Source: Clostridia bacterium
GTDB lineage: Bacteria > Bacillota > Clostridia > UMGS1883 > UMGS1540
DNA length: 64,000 nucleotides
Reading direction: 5' to 3'
NCBI GenBank assembly: GCA_017436645.1
Contig: JAFSCR010000029.1
Location: 24,360 to 88,359 of the forward strand
Below are positions 2,363 through 57,807 of the stretch, one piece after another. The notes below the pieces were generated by a model. It was not told where the DNA came from. It saw only the letters and a list, made by a program, of their open reading frames with translations, and did no database searches. The stretch's first letter is position 1. The number at the start of each line of letters is the position of its first letter. A program made the translations under genes and the position numbers.

Positions 2363-2938
2363 TTATTTTTCAAGGAAATATGTAGCTTCCATATCCGCAG
2401 TCGAAAGTGCAAATGCAAGGGGGAACCGCTGGAAGGCTTCGCCTACGTTTCTCTGGTCCTCTGTACCGGCAAACCCCATGTGGTAGCGGATTGCAAAGGC
2501 TTCCTCTCTCGTAAGGCGCATAAATCCCGTAATAATATACACGGATTTTTCCCCGTGCCCGTACGGCAGGTCATCGCTGTACTCAAAGGTGGGGACAGAC
2601 TTCCATACGCCGTTTTCCTTTACGTTTCTTGTGCCCGGTTTATAACAGTTTACCTTGCAAAGGTCATGAAGAAGAGCGGCGATGGCAATGGATTCGTCCG
2701 ATGTGGCAAACCCATAGGTTTCTCTGACTCTTTCTCTCTCCATATAAGCCTTCAGGCAGTGATAAACGTTTACGCTGTGCTCACAAAGGCCGCCGGCATA
2801 GGCGCCGTGAAAGCGTGTGGAGGCAGGTGCCTCAAAAAAGTCGCTCTGGGGGGACTGGAGATATTCCAGCAGTTTATCTGCCCCTTCTCTTTTAATATTT
2901 TCTTGGTAAAGACTTAAAAACTCTTCCCTTTTATCCAT
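2363..2938 (-). CDS. HD-domain phosphohydrolase
   Basis: RFHGAYAGGLCEHS and ALLHDLCK motifs. Start moved to the internal ATG at 2938, which is preceded by GAGGAG. Confidence 0.75.
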   Translation of the reverse strand: MDKREEFLSLYQENIKREGADKLLEYLQSPQSDFFEAPASTRFHGAYAGGLCEHSVNVYHCLKAYMERERVRETYGFATSDESIAIAALLHDLCKVNCYKPGTRNVKENGVWKSVPTFEYSDDLPYGHGEKSVYIITGFMRLTREEAFAIRYHMGFAGTEDQRNVGEAFQRFPLAFALSTADMEATYFLEK

Positions 2939-2942
2939 ACTT

Positions 2943-3236
2943 TCACTCCTCTGTCTTTTTTCGTCTTCGTTTTTTGATAACCAGTTTCCGGCTGGGGCCG
3001 AGGGCTGCACAAAGGTGCATCCACACAGCGTCCTTGCACTCTTTTTTAAATCGTCGCAGGGAGCCGTCCCCCGTATAGCCTACTACCATTTTCTTTCCCG
3101 AGAGGCGCAGAAACACAAAATCTTCTGCCCAAGTGTCATAAAGCGTCTCCGGCATGGTACGTTTAAGACGCGCATGTATTTCTTTTTGTACTTTTTCAGA
3201 ACGAAGATTTTGTTCGTTTGTTTTCATACTCCCCAC
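2943..3236 (-). CDS. Small protein with a DnaA N-terminal-domain-like pattern and a basic tail
   Basis: 97-aa ORF abutting the HD gene. The YDTWAEDFVFLRLSGKKMVVGY pattern resembles DnaA_N. The start codon is uncertain (GTG 3236 or ATG 3227). Confidence 0.4.
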   Translation of the reverse strand: MGSMKTNEQNLRSEKVQKEIHARLKRTMPETLYDTWAEDFVFLRLSGKKMVVGYTGDGSLRRFKKECKDAVWMHLCAALGPSRKLVIKKRRRKKTEE

Positions 3237-4203: not shown

Positions 4204-4827
4204 TTAATACAATTTTGTAAATTCAAAAGAGCTGTCAATGCCAAGTTTTTTCAGTGCTTCATCCTTTTTATTTGCGATATCCCTGTCCAAGCGGTCAAAA
4301 TAGTTATTGCCCTCACAGTCAATATCCACAATGAAGGGGCCTAAATCATGCAGCTTAAAAAACCATGCCGCCTCGATTCTGCCGAGCTCGTCATAAAGAT
4401 ATACGTCCTGCACTTCAATGGAGTCAATCCATAAGTTGGGGCTTACCGAGCGGGGTGAAACATGAACACACTTCTTTTCTTTCATCATTTTTGCGGTTTT
4501 TTCACCCATTGTAGTTTTTCCTACAATCATTTTAAGACCCCATTCCTCCACGCTTTTTGCACCCCATTTTTCAAAGCGGATGCTTGATGTGGGCATAAAG
4601 GACATAAGCTTCCATTTTCCGTTTTCCCGAATCACAATAGGTCCGTTGTGGATTAAAACATTTCTGTCTTTCGTATCAAAAGGCAAAACATTGTTTTCAT
4701 CAAAAATGTACTTTTGGAGTCTGGAGCGGCAAGTGAAACATTCACCGCTAATATATACCGTGTCGCCAAGTTTTAATTTTTTTACATCGTCATCTGAAAG
4801 CGGCGATGTTAAATGATATTCTGCCAT
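4204..4827 (-). CDS. Fe-S type hydro-lyase beta subunit (class I fumarate hydratase / tartrate dehydratase C-terminal type)
   Basis: The MAEYHLTSPLSDDDVKKLKLGDTVYISGECFTCR N-terminus is typical of FumA C-terminal/TtdB-type subunits. RBS is AGGAGGA. Confidence 0.8.
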   Translation of the reverse strand: MAEYHLTSPLSDDDVKKLKLGDTVYISGECFTCRSRLQKYIFDENNVLPFDTKDRNVLIHNGPIVIRENGKWKLMSFMPTSSIRFEKWGAKSVEEWGLKMIVGKTTMGEKTAKMMKEKKCVHVSPRSVSPNLWIDSIEVQDVYLYDELGRIEAAWFFKLHDLGPFIVDIDCEGNNYFDRLDRDIANKKDEALKKLGIDSSFEFTKLY

Positions 4828-9031: not shown

Positions 9032-9886
9032 ATGGATATTAAACATTTTGTACTTTCCTATTACAATAACTCGGCAGAAAACTTTCATATTCAAAAAGTA
9101 GAAAACGCATATGAAGCAAAAAAGCCCCACACCCACGATTATTTTCAGATTTATTATATTGCAAACGGCAGTCTCCAGCACTTCGTAGAACATAGTTCTT
9201 CCAAATTGCACCAGGGGGACATGTTTATCGTGCCTCCCGGCGTCGTTCACTATATCGCACCCGAAATAAACACCGTGTTTTATTCTTTTTCTTTTATGCC
9301 TGATTTTTTAAGCGAAGCAAACCAGTCCGGTAAGCTTTGCGCACTCTTTCTCCGGAATCTCCTTTCGGACAAGAACATTCTTCCCAAAGTATCCATCGGC
9401 TCCGAGGACATATTTTATATGGAATCCATCATGGAAAGAATGCTGCATGAATTTAACTCGAAAGACTTTGGTTTTAGTGAAATCATTCATTCTTATGCCG
9501 TTTTGCTGGTCTCGGCTTTAGCTCGAAACTATTTTAAAAAAAATACATTGCCCGAATATTTTGACAACAGCAAGCAATTCGTATTGCATTGTGTCAGATA
9601 CATCGAAAATAATTTTACCGAGCACATTACCCTTGACGAAATTTCAAAGCTCTCCGCCATGTCAAAAAACAGCTTTTGCGAGCTTTTTTATAAGCTTACA
9701 GGCCATTCATTTAACAGCTACTTAAATATCTGTCGAATAAAAAAAGCCACAGAATACATAAAGGACGGTTATAAAATAACCGCCATTTACGGACTCTGTG
9801 GGTATACTGATTTTTCAACCTTTTATCGTAATTTCAAAAAAATAATGGGTGTATCTCCAAATGAATTCAAAAAGAAGAGCCTGTAG
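9032..9886 (+). CDS. AraC-family transcriptional regulator with an N-terminal cupin sensor
   Basis: Cupin-like N-terminal half (HTHDYFQIYYIANG). C-terminal double HTH (ISKLSAMSKNSFCELF ... GYTDFSTFYRNFKK). Divergent from the DUF1446 operon. Confidence 0.88.
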   Translation: MDIKHFVLSYYNNSAENFHIQKVENAYEAKKPHTHDYFQIYYIANGSLQHFVEHSSSKLHQGDMFIVPPGVVHYIAPEINTVFYSFSFMPDFLSEANQSGKLCALFLRNLLSDKNILPKVSIGSEDIFYMESIMERMLHEFNSKDFGFSEIIHSYAVLLVSALARNYFKKNTLPEYFDNSKQFVLHCVRYIENNFTEHITLDEISKLSAMSKNSFCELFYKLTGHSFNSYLNICRIKKATEYIKDGYKITAIYGLCGYTDFSTFYRNFKKIMGVSPNEFKKKSL

Positions 9887-9918
9887 AATGTTTTTCGCTT
9901 TGCTCAAAACTCAATATG

Positions 9919-10181
9919 ATATGCACCGCATATAAAGACTGTACAATCTGGATGATAAACCTTAACAATGAATTGACAACTGTCGTTGTCATGAATTGGA
10001 TTTCATCCATGAATTGTTGTAAACAACATGATTTGAATTGCCTTAATGCACCGAAGGTGCAATTCATGAGCCACAAGGCTCAATTCGTGAAATCTGTGAT
10101 TTCAATTCATGCCAAAGGCAATTCATTGCGGTCACAGACCGCATATAAAGACTGTATAATCTGGATGCCAGTCTTTTTTTG
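9919..10181. repeat. Mirrored ATGAATT / AATTCAT motif array interleaved with variable mini-hairpins, bounded by 30-nt direct repeats
   Basis: ATGAATT at 9968, 9991 and 10009, with a degenerate copy at 10028. AATTCAT/AATTCGT at 10061, 10082, 10104 and 10120. Direct repeats at 9925-9954 and 10138-10167 match 29/30. See findings. Confidence 0.8.
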
Positions 10182-10203
10182 CATGGTTCGTGTTAAGATT
10201 AAA

Positions 10204-11538
10204 CTAAAAACAAATTTTATTTTTCTTTAACAAGTATTTGTATGCACCAAGTGATACCAAACTGTCAAACGCCATTCCGATTCCAAACATCATAGCTATT
10301 CCCGTAAGGGTTGGAACCCATATTTTTGTAATATATAATAAAAATGCTGTTCCATAATACAATGTATTCGTTATAACCGATTCAAAAAGCATATATTTTG
10401 TTTTTCCCAAGCCGTAAAAAGTCGCATCAAAAACATTTTGAAACGCATACAACACATAAAAACCAACTAAAATTATAACAAGATTGAATAGTTTATCTAC
10501 ATCTTTGAATAACAGTATATTGGTCATAAAAGGTTTCCACAAAGGTATAGACACGAACCACAATGAACAAACAACCGTTGTTATCGCAAAATATCCTAAT
10601 GTTTTATTCTTAATAGCATAACGGTCAGTTGCAACATCTTTCTTTATATATTCTCCCAATTGCGTTATTGGCAAAAGCAACCATCCCCAAATAAAGTTGT
10701 TTGCAACCCAATATGTACCTTGTTCGTTCACAACATTTACCATTCGTGAAATCATTACTATATAAGCAAAATTTCTCACAAAAGATTCAATCCCTGAAAT
10801 TACACCAACATTCCAAAGTTCTTTCATCCACGAAAACGAAAGTTTCTGCTTTGTAAAAAGGAATCCTTCTTCTTTATTAAGCAAAGTCAAGCTTATAACA
10901 AACATTACTCCGTTTGCAATGATATTTGTTATTGCGATTCCATTAACGCCTAGTTTTAAGGAACAAGGAAGAGATGATACTAAAAGCGTATCAATCATTG
11001 TACACAAAATCAACCGTATTCCCGTCAATATATACATAAATTTTACTTTATTTAATGTAATCAATACTACAAGAACAAAACTTGAAACAACTGAAAATAT
11101 TAAGGCTATACTTTCTATCCGTATATATGTTGCTGATTCTGCTAAAATATCTTTGTTAACAGACATAATCATAAGCATGGGTTTTATAAATAACATAATC
11201 AGCAGTGCTAATACCACATATATTAAAAATGTGACTAAGAGACCACTTTTAAGACAATTACCAAGTTCTTTTTTGTTATTTGATGCTTTGCCAATAAAAT
11301 AATAAAGCGGCAGTATTATTGATTCGTTTATAATTTCATAGAGTAAATTTATCCAGGTAAGCTGTCCTGCTATAGAAAATGAATACTCGCCCGGTAGTTG
11401 ACCTAAAAAGAAAATCCTTAAAGTTGTATATAAGGTCGGAACTAATTGTATAAGCATCAAAGAGATTATAAGCCTATAATCAATCAATGATAAAGATTTT
11501 TTAATCTTAAGAATCAACTTTGAAACTCCTTTCGACAT
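10204..11538 (-). CDS. MATE / polysaccharide-flippase-like (MOP superfamily) membrane protein on an AT-rich islet
   Basis: 444-aa ORF with about 12 predicted TM segments. Markedly AT-rich compared with its neighbours, judged by eye. Confidence 0.65.
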   Translation of the reverse strand: MSKGVSKLILKIKKSLSLIDYRLIISLMLIQLVPTLYTTLRIFFLGQLPGEYSFSIAGQLTWINLLYEIINESIILPLYYFIGKASNNKKELGNCLKSGLLVTFLIYVVLALLIMLFIKPMLMIMSVNKDILAESATYIRIESIALIFSVVSSFVLVVLITLNKVKFMYILTGIRLILCTMIDTLLVSSLPCSLKLGVNGIAITNIIANGVMFVISLTLLNKEEGFLFTKQKLSFSWMKELWNVGVISGIESFVRNFAYIVMISRMVNVVNEQGTYWVANNFIWGWLLLPITQLGEYIKKDVATDRYAIKNKTLGYFAITTVVCSLWFVSIPLWKPFMTNILLFKDVDKLFNLVIILVGFYVLYAFQNVFDATFYGLGKTKYMLFESVITNTLYYGTAFLLYITKIWVPTLTGIAMMFGIGMAFDSLVSLGAYKYLLKKNKICF

Positions 11539-52359: not shown

Positions 52360-52590
52360 TGAAAAAAACGGAGCTTTTGCAATACAAAAACTCCGCACAA
52401 AAAAGCCTTTTAAAACCTTTTTCTCCGTCCTTTTGCCTGAGAGATTAACCCGAAAACGGGCTTTACACCTTCGGCATCCTTTTGATTCCCTTGGGAACCG
52501 GGACTTCTCCGGAGCGCTATCTGTATGCAGTCACTGCTACTGCGCCTGAGAGCATTACTCCTTCGGCAAGGCATCCGCCTTTCTCCTGCA
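52360..52590 (-). promoter_or_regulatory. Tandem glycine riboswitch with a terminator expression platform
   Basis: Minus strand, aptamer 1: GGAGAA...GCCGAAGGAG.AA...CTCAGGCGCA. Aptamer 2: TCCGGAGAA...GCCGAAGGTG.AA...CTCTCAGGCAAAAGGACGGAG. These are followed by CGGAGTTTT...AAAAGCTCCG plus T7 (52397-52363). Confidence 0.85.
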
Positions 52591-57100: not shown

Positions 57101-57454
57101 TTAATTTGCATTGTTTTTGGCAGTTTTAATGGAAGCAATCAGCAAAATTCTAATGGTAGAACAAATTTTATTCAGACGTTTATATTGTGATGCATTAATA
57201 TAATTTGATTTATGCAGCATTTCAAGCCATTTTCCCGTTTCGCTTGCCTCTTTTAATGCGATTTCCAGTTTTGCAATGAAATCAGCTCTACTATGACCAT
57301 ATTTTGACTCGGCAATATTAGCGCATACGCTTGTGGCGCTTCGTCCGATCTGATTAGAAATTATAGTTTCTTTTTTATTTCGCAGTTCTTTTACTAAATT
57401 CAAAATTTCAACAGATAATTCCATCGAAAGATTTCCAAGTTTATCTTCTTTCAT
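57101..57454 (-). CDS. Four-helix-bundle protein (23S rRNA intervening-sequence protein family)
   Basis: 117 aa. The GRSATSVCANIAE...RADFIAKLEIALKEASETGKWLEML pattern is typical of this family. AT-rich. Confidence 0.8.
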   Translation of the reverse strand: MKEDKLGNLSMELSVEILNLVKELRNKKETIISNQIGRSATSVCANIAESKYGHSRADFIAKLEIALKEASETGKWLEMLHKSNYINASQYKRLNKICSTIRILLIASIKTAKNNAN

Positions 57455-57491
57455 ATCGGATTCACCTCTCTACTCAAAGTATACCATACAT

Positions 57492-57669
57492 TTGCACGAA
57501 GTGCAACATCATTGTTGCGAAGCAATACATCATTGATACGACGTATCACATCATTTGCGCAAAGGCGCAACATCGTTTTGTGTCCGCCAATGCGGAATGA
57601 TGTTGACCGCAAGCGGTCAAACAGTGTGCTCTCCTACGTTCGCAATGATGTTGTGTCCTGCGGACACAA
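57492..57669. repeat. Mirrored ACATCATT / AATGATGT motif array interleaved with variable mini-hairpins
   Basis: ACATCATT at 57506, 57527 and 57548; ACATCGTT at 57570. AATGATGT at 57596 and 57644. Unrelated 4-8 bp hairpins lie between the motifs. See findings. Confidence 0.75.
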
Positions 57670-57673
57670 ATAC

Positions 57674-57704
57674 AAAAAAAGCATCCCTAAAGGATGCTTT
57701 TTTT
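57674..57704. terminator. Bidirectional terminator downstream of tRNA-Arg
   Basis: A7-GCATCC-CTAAA-GGATGC-T7. Confidence 0.85.
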
Positions 57705-57706
57705 GA

Positions 57707-57783
57707 TGGCGCGCCGTAAGAGATTCGAACTCCTGACCTTATGGTCCGTAGCCATACGCTCTATCCAGCTGAGCTAACGGCGC
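57707..57783 (-). tRNA. tRNA-Arg (anticodon ACG), with encoded CCA
   Basis: Manual cloverleaf of the reverse complement: acceptor GCGCCGT/ACGGCGC, D arm GCTC..GAGC, anticodon stem TATGG/CCATA with loop CTACGGA, T arm AGGAG-TTCGAAT-CTCTT, and 3-prime GCCA. Confidence 0.93.
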
Positions 57784-57807
57784 ATGCTCTCTCGAGCTGA
57801 CCTAGGT

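Follow-up and report, generated by a model that had tools for sequence, protein, structure and literature searches.

The 64,000-nt stretch of Clostridia bacterium DNA analysed here (the window; positions are its coordinates, and L-numbers are labels of comparison loci) contains at 9966-10128 an intergenic array, locus 1, in which a heptamer and its reverse complement are separated by small hairpins. Locus 1 is best read as a divergent, two-armed and gene-less relative of the Gut-1 RNA motif and of the arms of the intervening sequences that carry S23p (PF05635) genes. With moderate confidence, we take it to be a gene-less two-armed copy of a dispersed, Gut-1-like and S23p-linked element whose arms would act by pairing with each other in RNA. 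An earlier note, made from the sequence alone, had called the architecture unassignable to any class; constant heptamers with variable hairpins between them are, however, the design of Gut-1, and the inverted arms have a parallel in S23p intervening sequences (PMC4990558).

The heptamer ATGAATT occurs in forward orientation at 9968, 9991 and 10009 and is followed by a degenerate ATGATTT at 10028, which is overlapped by TGAATT at 10034. Its reverse complement AATTCAT occurs at 10061, 10104 and 10120, with AATTCGT at 10082. In total, the array comprises four ATGAATT units and four AATTCAT units, and every gap between neighbours is filled by a perfect mini-hairpin closed by an outer G..C pair (9975-9990, 9998-10008, 10016-10027, 10048-10060, 10068-10081, 10089-10103 and 10111-10119). 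All motifs and hairpins that the earlier note had listed are present. The left arm (9966-10047) consists of three ATGAATT, the ATGATTT/TGAATT overlap and three mini-hairpins, and ends in the centre piece GCCTTAAT. The right arm (10045-10127) begins with the head TAATG and continues with four hairpins (10048-10060 to 10111-10119) separated by AATTCAT or AATTCGT; after the last heptamer follows a terminal hairpin, TGCGGTC-ACA-GACCGCA, at 10127-10143.

Chance is ruled out as the origin of this array. Eight of the 19 near-matches to CATGAATTG (at most one mismatch) in the 64-kb window are concentrated in the 162 nt of locus 1, and a k-mer scan found the array layout at two sites in the window, locus 1 and 57492-57669. 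The folding z-score of locus 1 is about −5.4 on both strands, and none of 200 shuffles equalled it. The Rfam search that had been proposed for the locus returned no relevant family here or at 57492-57669, either at the gathering score or at E values up to 10. A CRISPR array was rejected, the repeats being 7-9 nt long, the 'spacers' being palindromes of 7-16 nt and the layout being mirrored. The architecture does not match that of type III antitoxin arrays, CRISPR mimics or integron attC sites either. Tiny open reading frames (ORFs) starting at the linker ATG were dismissed because their frame is not conserved, and a promoter or terminator role of the hairpins was discarded, there being no T-runs behind them and only inconsistent −35/−10 matches.

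Arm anatomy and relatives of the array

Relatives of locus 1 were collected by pattern scans. Exact-pattern scans of IMG/VR gave 41 matches, about a dozen of which are relatives with the ATGAATT heptamer and different hairpins, and a three-motif pattern gave at least 120 matches in a species-genome collection, those listed coming mostly from uncultured gut or rumen Clostridia (Oscillospiraceae, Acutalibacteraceae, Christensenellales, Eubacteriales). Many matches to a two-motif pattern were set aside as unrelated tandem repeats or chance matches (for example L009-L011, L019, L033, L040 and L041), and most of L046-L165, which are likewise unrelated or chance matches, were used as background alone. 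A blastn search with the locus 1 element against plasmid and phage collections gave no match.

The earlier note had treated the mirrored whole as the unit. The comparison shows instead that the unit is the arm of four heptamers: 129 of 181 arms have four, and arms occur either singly (patterns FFFF or RRRR, 26 each) or as inverted head-to-head pairs, lone arms being about as common as mirrored pairs. Among 320 distinct inter-heptamer segments, 257 are perfect hairpins, and the outer pair is G-C in 253 of these 257. A covariance model, R1, was trained on 41 arms from other genomes with the window left out. It recovered both arms of locus 1, on the minus strand the right one (10045-10127; 62.3 bits, E 1.8e-10) and on the plus strand the left one (9967-10048; 51.7 bits, E 2.3e-08), and thus locus 1 is a member of this family.

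Seven copies, found in a phage contig and in six genome assemblies, represent the subfamily to which locus 1 belongs; their column identity averages 85%, and they have the same hairpins in the same order. The right-arm order of locus 1 is also that of L007, L179, L223, L264, L267 and L277. Loops change freely among the seven copies, and four stem pairs are altered on both sides. The stems are therefore preserved by compensatory changes while loops vary, in agreement with the selection on hairpin shape that had been proposed. The accompanying idea that the stems vary freely does not hold, because, from one genome to the next, each hairpin position retains a stem sequence of its own. A lone arm in L221 has the same terminal hairpin as locus 1, followed by ATATAAAAG; the other subfamily members have a different one, GAGTTTGC..GCAAACTC.

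Arrays with other linkers belong to the same design. In contigs that carry ATGAATT arrays, a generic detector picked up others whose linkers are CATCAT, ATATCAC and GCTAAAT, and inspection by eye showed one with a TATATCATCA linker next to a PF05635 gene in L208. In many arrays (L166, L167, L173, L198, L203, L253 and L277, for example at 7735-7755 of L277), one heptamer-hairpin unit is replaced by a recurring unit, GGAGCGAAGCGAGAAATCATG, which does not form a clean hairpin but contains a GCGAAGC mini-hairpin. At 692-3858 of L249, every intergenic gap of a row of genes holds a lone arm, four of them within 3.2 kb and all in the same orientation, a distribution like that of repetitive extragenic palindromic (REP) elements. 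Arrays also occur in phages. In the phage contig L005 they bracket the portal and large terminase genes (150-425, 2831-3056 and 4472-4804), and the phage contig L007 carries arrays at 9555-9776, 1148-1286 and 3091-3230 of both types found in the window, ATGAATT and CATCAT. A phage packaging site or packaging RNA, which the position beside terL and the portal gene might have suggested, was rejected because the same arrays lie between ordinary chromosomal genes.

PF05635 genes, Gut-1 and intervening sequences

When the ORFs around the arrays were clustered, one recurrent neighbour emerged, a protein of about 118 aa of the PF05635/TIGR02436 family. An array adjoins or encloses each of the 14 PF05635 genes found in the fetched loci, and in L198 and L271 the gene has one arm on either side. 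Complete elements either contain such a gene or lie immediately ahead of one, and the window contains an example at 57101-57669. The second array (57492-57669) consists of three (A)CATCAT and one CATCGT, followed by two CAATGATGT in inverted sense, with mini-hairpins between them. The earlier note had named it as a relative of locus 1, which is correct for the architecture; the linker is of a different type, CATCAT. Directly downstream of it, on the minus strand, lies the gene for a four-helix-bundle protein (S23p, Avd-like; 57101-57454), which matched Pfam PF05635 (E 5.2e-26) and NCBIfam TIGR02436 (E 5.1e-28); the closest PDB entry is 2RLD (E 5.4e-26), which has five chains. A PADLOC search with this protein gave no match.

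The protein and the linker change together. Within a linker type the proteins are 72-81% identical, between types 39-44%, so that protein clades track linker type. Because of this co-variation, the comparison suggests that the S23p pentamer reads the heptamers. In L277 and L267 the array precedes the gene and consensus promoters read straight into it (TTGACA-17-TATAAT in L277, matching at 12 of 12 positions and with TG; TTGAAA-17-TATAAT in L267); as judged from sequence, these arrays are 5′ leaders. Comparison of 5460-5790 of L223 with 7200-7890 of L277 revealed the promoter, the terminal hairpin and both arms at high identity; the PF05635 gene is missing from L223, and the region of the ribosome-binding site (RBS) is fused directly to sequence found behind the gene in L277. 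Since L223 corresponds to an L277-type element minus its gene, gene-less copies such as locus 1 can arise from gene-bearing elements.

The known motif closest to these arrays is Gut-1 (Rfam RF01706), which was described by Weinberg et al. 2010 (PMC2864571) without function, host, mirror arm or gene association and was rated by the Breaker laboratory as certainly RNA on the basis of covariation (PMC2864571). Its consensus, CAaUGAAAU-hp-GUGAAAU-hp-GUGAAAU-hp-gUGAAAU, contains four linkers and three variable hairpins and corresponds to one arm. The Gut-1 gathering score is 50, and the model gave 59-73 bits to the arrays next to PF05635 genes in L315, L316, L320 and L321, whose linkers are GUGAAAU or GUGAUAU, with the opposite arm below threshold on the other strand. 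Compared by eye, the Gut-1 seed BAAZ01025322 is nearly identical to the sequence that precedes the PF05635 gene in L316, and R1 gave a weak cross-match (22 bits, E 0.019) to a Gut-1 array, that of L320. One arm is thus, judging by these matches, what Rfam models as Gut-1 RNA in sister lineages. Four repeated heptamer linkers, short variable hairpins and a gut habitat are shared by Gut-1 and the arrays of the window; locus 1 has, as Gut-1 does, at least three short hairpins on an invariant heptamer-type linker; and the linker ATGAAAT of L315 is one base from ATGAATT. The genomic context of Gut-1 (tRNA, terminator, array, PF05635 gene) is that of the second array, whereas locus 1 lies between an AraC-family and a MATE gene. 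Gut-1 linkers are (G)UGAAAU or GUGAUAU, as opposed to AUGAAUU and CAUCAU in the window, and Rfam models a single arm only.

The second system is the 23S rRNA intervening sequence of Coxiella, which is viewed as a selfish element carrying an S23p gene. Upstream of the gene lie three tandem GACAGAT heptamers and a degenerate fourth, their copy number differs among strains, and terminal inverted repeats give rise to a 28-bp stem that RNase III cuts in excision (PMC4990558). In Coxiella burnetii and Leptospira, such intervening sequences combine a PF05635 gene with inverted arms of about four heptamers, or 28 bp, as do the arms described here (PMC4990558); four heptamers, equivalent to 28 bp, are also the preferred arm size of the array family. 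Locus 1, with 4 + 4 inverted heptamers, has the same amount of potential stem, interrupted by hairpins: the stem of the intervening sequence is a continuous duplex, whereas that of locus 1 would be a stack of junctions with hairpins between the heptamers. Intervening sequences sit in helix 25 or 45 of 23S rRNA, whereas locus 1 is intergenic between protein genes, and Rfam found no rRNA in the window.

A third likeness is to the REP elements, bacterial interspersed mosaic elements (BIMEs) and REP doublets (REPINs) of Proteobacteria. Like these, the arrays are short dispersed intergenic hairpin repeats of either orientation, which stand alone or form inverted pairs and lie mostly at the ends of genes and within operons. 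In REP elements the palindromes are conserved and have a 5′ GTAG, whereas in the arrays the linker is conserved, the palindromes vary by position and there is no GTAG; the gene linked to the arrays encodes a four-helix-bundle protein. No recurrent cluster of transposases, including REP-associated tyrosine transposases (RAYTs), appeared among the ORFs of the fetched loci, to which the clustering was confined. Apart from the description of Coxiella, no literature linking Gut-1, PF05635 and heptamer or hairpin arrays was found; a paper on IS607 transposon ends was irrelevant to the arrays.

Distant PF05635 genes were then drawn from plasmids, phages and IMG/VR, and 29 loci were compared with 400 control windows. 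In 20 of the 29 loci, as against 2.8% of the control windows, the flanks contain a 6-mer that occurs three or more times in each orientation, and the inverted flanking repeats have units of 6-8 nt. Plain tandem heptamer arms surround PF05635 genes in Nostoc, Planktothrix, Bernardetia, Treponema and many viral contigs, for example four AATTCAA upstream and four TTGAATT downstream in L314, or four ATTCGTA and four TACGAAT in L335; in gut Clostridia and their phages, hairpins separate the heptamers. We read the array element as a version, decorated with hairpins, of the inverted tandem-heptamer arms found on both sides of PF05635 genes in many phyla. In Planktothrix and Nostoc plasmids, the inverted tandem heptamers flanking these genes are CCCCAAT-like, and we liken them to the cyanobacterial short tandem heptamer repeats (STRR), which are plain tandem repeats with no hairpins between them, unlike locus 1; no literature tying the cyanobacterial heptamer repeats to PF05635 was found. 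PF05635 genes often lie inside defence operons (hsdS/hsdR, DrmD/PglX) and have been described in cas loci (PMC3936711). Inserts with inverted short-repeat arms were observed in such defence or modification operons at 701-1042 of L312, 701-1060 of L313 and 695-1060 of L314, the sites being hsdS-hsdR in Monoglobus, DrmD-PglX in Planktothrix and a position before a cytosine methyltransferase in Nostoc.

Surroundings of locus 1 and of the second array

Locus 1 is flanked by convergent genes, an AraC-family gene on the plus strand (9032-9886) and a MATE gene on the minus strand (10204-11538). It lies in the 3′ region of the AraC-family gene, and 9886-10204 contains no PF05635 ORF. In four other species, the upstream AtuA-DUF4387 synteny of the AraC-family orthologue is kept and the array after the gene is absent; the downstream genes differ, so that this comparison does not amount to a true filled/empty pair at one site. 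Because AraC-family orthologues elsewhere have no array behind them, the array at locus 1 is, by this comparison, a lineage-specific arrival.

The earlier note had described 30-nt direct repeats at 9925-9954 and 10138-10167 as the boundaries of the unit. A repeat finder confirmed that they are identical at 29 of 30 positions, but they are part of an independent, dispersed module about 35 nt long (ATAWAAGACTGTATAATCTGGATGCCA...), of which 9925-9954 is a partial copy and which occurs away from arrays in L277 (3194-3230 and 5013-5040). On sequence grounds they are not a target-site duplication. The module also adjoins the lone arm in L221 (about 945-1010). On its opposite strand it has a promoter-like (T)TGGCA-17-TTATAT and lies upstream of genes in L277, and a similar piece, TGGCATCTAAATCGTTCAC, occurs behind the PF05635 gene in L277 and in L223 as well. 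In the window, the minus strand of 10138-10181 is likewise promoter-like when read by eye (cTGGCA-17-TTATAT).

On the plus strand, at 10138-10181, the second repeat copy runs into a hairpin, AAAGACTG - 14-nt loop - CAGTCTTT, followed by seven T, the inverted pair having been reported by the repeat finder. The terminator-like hairpin at 10147-10181 is thus borne out as far as its 8-bp stem and T7 are concerned, but a consensus scanner did not call it, because the 14-nt loop is long. It could plausibly terminate transcription of the AraC-family gene. Short-read (Logan) contigs of the same organism (ends of L002 and L004) stop inside the array at CATGAAT (window 9991-9995), which suggests that the repeat breaks short-read assemblies.

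The second array lies next to a tRNA gene (57710-57783, minus strand; Rfam tRNA, 64.1 bits), whose terminator (57673-57705, minus strand; terminator scan) is just upstream of the array. The order tRNA, terminator, array, gene recurs in L208, L286-L299, L316, L317 and L321. In L286-L299, close homologues picked on the protein alone, the tRNA, the terminator, an orthologous mirrored CATCAT/CATCGT array, a TG-extended −10 box, the RBS and the gene follow one another in this order in all. A promoter-like site of the PF05635 gene was read by eye at 57478-57506 on the minus strand: a weak −35-like TTGCAC in the last array unit, 17 nt, and TGG-TATACT. This layout is kept in L286, L296, L298 and L299; the consensus scanner skips the site, its −35 box agreeing at 3 of 6 positions. 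Elsewhere, an ATGAATT array with its PF05635 gene repeatedly lies just downstream of a recurrent gene for a protein of about 390-465 aa (5901-7775 of L182, 1389-3325 of L202, 5366-7070 of L253 and 587-2496 of L283), which we provisionally take to be a RumA/RlmD-like 23S rRNA methyltransferase. The site could be a hot spot for insertion, or the element could be functionally tied to 23S rRNA. A glycine riboswitch aptamer (Rfam RF00504, 49.7 bits) lies at 52415-52522 of the window on the minus strand.

Arm pairing and competing explanations

The motifs of locus 1 pair in the nested register that had been claimed, including a perfect 10-bp outer helix between 9966-9975 and 10119-10128. The nested fold has a predicted energy of −47.5 kcal/mol, compared with −34.0 kcal/mol for the hairpins alone and −52.6 kcal/mol for the minimum-free-energy fold; it gains 13.5 kcal/mol over the hairpins alone and is at most about 5 kcal/mol from the minimum, and is energetically reasonable. 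The modelled fold with four-way junctions is plausible. A competing pairing of 11 perfect bp, 10034-10044 (TGAATTGCCTT) with 10115-10125 (AAGGCAATTCA), is part of the minimum-free-energy fold of the whole region; it competes with the last hairpin as well, and its sequences do not vary within the subfamily.

If the plain heptamer arms and the Coxiella stem are taken as a guide, the arms would pair heptamer to heptamer in a transcript, giving 4 x 7 = 28 bp, with the hairpins folding out at the joints. Because the element is symmetric between strands, either direction of transcription would give the same RNA design. The folded arms may serve as a processing or insulating structure, for which the RNase III-cut 28-bp stem of Coxiella is the model, and they are probably the binding site of the cognate S23p pentamer. 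Pairing in RNA, cutting by RNase III, binding by S23p and mobility of the element are what we infer, whereas the sequences show that locus 1 belongs to the family, how its arms are built, that the family is tied to PF05635, that gene-less copies originate when the gene is lost and that presence is lineage-specific.

Several results weigh against pairing of the arms in RNA. The proposed covariance model and covariation check gave a divided answer: the hairpin stems compensate, but the linker helices of the subfamily show no covariation, a test that is uninformative here because the linkers are invariant. The few linker-helix deviations are uncompensated, A.C in L179 and L223 and U.G in the window, and the single T:G pair, which the earlier note had counted as legal only in a plus-strand transcript, says nothing about the strand, since homologues show A.C at another linker helix on the same strand. 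Arms of mirrored elements are often unequal in size; the orthologous CATCAT-type arrays have unequal arms and A.C mismatches on the sense strand of the gene, and their gene promoter lies between array and gene, so that the array may be outside the mRNA. Lone arms make up 81 of 173 distinct arms, one per intergenic gap as in REP elements, and since arms without a partner are so common, pairing is unnecessary for their persistence. At locus 1, a consensus scan gave only background-level promoter sites, none of them convincing. The Gut-1 model had no match across the window at the gathering score and none at E values up to 10 in 9850-10250 or 57400-57800. RNase III normally wants about two turns of continuous duplex, whereas a junction would interrupt locus 1 every 7 bp.

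The loops of the hairpins raise a further difficulty. On the AATTCAT strand the most frequent are GCA (60), GAA (52), AAA (27), GTAA (21), GTCA (21), GCAA (17) and GTA (16), whereas the complements TTC and TGC number 1 and 0, a strong strand specificity, and 199 of 257 hairpins have C-G as the pair that closes the loop. The two arms of a mirrored element have their favoured loops on opposite strands. The same loop and closing-pair rule characterizes the DNA mini-hairpins GCGNAGC and GCGNNAGC, which are described as extraordinarily stable (PMC13037366). Exact GCGAAGC and GCGAAAGC units occur in phage copies of the array. The DNA mini-hairpin is a structural motif and not a genetic element, and its presence is no proof that the arrays act as DNA. 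Nevertheless, the loop rule is not explained by RNA arms and points to DNA.

An unlikely alternative, suggested by the strand specificity of the GNA/GNNA loops closed by C-G, is that the array is a REP/BIME-like element of single-stranded DNA. An arm would then be a set of four stable mini-hairpins on one strand, recognised, copied or moved by a structure-specific protein, RNA being incidental; folding would accompany replication, repair or transfer, or follow from the extrusion of hairpins out of supercoiled DNA, and the mirrored form would represent two arms on opposite strands. The mini-hairpin rule accommodates the C-G closure and the loops, including GTCA, GTTA and GATA, which are not of the GNRA type (PMC13037366). 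The array shows no bias of orientation relative to genes that would pick out an RNA strand: the favoured strand of lone arms in operons is sense in 9 cases and antisense in 12. Lone arms lie one per gap, in either orientation and several per genome, and are rare between divergent genes (2 cases, as against 9 between convergent ones), and the termination of short-read contigs inside the array fits the same explanation. Single stem mismatches on one strand comprise 23 G.T and 8 A.C, an excess that would suit DNA but does not discriminate, because RNA tolerates the pair equally as G.U. Against this alternative, no HUH, RAYT or other transposase family recurs beside the arrays of the fetched loci, strong promoters drive into the gene-preceding arrays, and Gut-1 was judged certainly RNA by covariation. 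The plain heptamer arms of other phyla are free of hairpins, so that hairpin DNA is not the common principle.

We give little credence to a free-standing, trans-acting structured small RNA gene of about 230-260 nt with its own promoter and terminator, as the earlier note proposed and as Rfam views Gut-1. The gene-less copies in L179, L223 and L170 do retain a TG-n-TATAAT box directly upstream of the terminal hairpin, a plus-strand hairpin with seven T ends locus 1, the fold z-scores are as low as stated above, and Gut-1 is listed as a likely non-coding RNA. The sites that the scanner found ahead of locus 1 are, however, at background level, and the locus sits in the 3′ region of the AraC-family gene. 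Within operons and in phage late operons, arrays are found either way round, many copies are half elements, and the tight linkage to one gene family favours a role in cis or the element itself. Conventional double-stranded DNA ends of a transposon or a miniature inverted-repeat transposable element, with the heptamers as subterminal transposase-binding sites and the hairpins as incidental spacers, are similarly improbable: inverted arms of repeated short motifs look like transposon ends, near-identical copies occur in such unrelated contexts as a phage (L007) and chromosomes, and orthologous sites lack the array, but no target-site duplication was seen (the sole flanking repeat, of 30 nt, being a separate module), no transposase is linked to the arrays in the clustered loci, the heptamers are unevenly spaced (16-23 bp), strand-specific selection acts on the perfection of the hairpins and on the class of their loops, and lone arms persist.

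What is new relative to earlier descriptions is the mirror arm, the rule that governs the loops strand by strand, the scatter of arrays through gut Clostridia and their phages in the manner of REP elements, and the general link to PF05635. The window and its related loci connect the Gut-1 motif, the S23p family, the heptamer arms of intervening sequences and the abundant REP-like repeats of uncultured gut Clostridia and phages. Gut-1 has been an orphan Rfam motif since 2010, and the window supplies both a gene-bearing and a gene-less copy of a related element. On the practical side, such arrays appear to break short-read assemblies and risk being confused with novel ornate RNAs.

To our knowledge, PF05635/S23p proteins are very widespread (in rRNA intervening sequences and defence operons) and have a known role only as the Avd protein of diversity-generating retroelements (DGRs). 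Under the preferred reading of locus 1 as a gene-less copy of an S23p-linked element with RNA arms, entries now listed as 'function unknown' would come under one hypothesis, namely clade-specific protein recognition of heptamer arms and processing of the folded arms. More speculatively, Gut-1-type and plain inverted heptamer arrays might form one cross-phylum class in which the heptamers are the ligand of a cognate pentameric S23p/Avd-like protein, which co-varies with them, the whole being a self-propagating cassette whose insertion into transcription units, rRNA genes, defence operons and phage late operons would be tolerated because its arms fold and are removed from the transcript by processing. 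We offer this wider view tentatively; if true, it would assign a function together to Gut-1, to the PF05635 proteins outside DGRs and to the cyanobacterial heptamer repeats.

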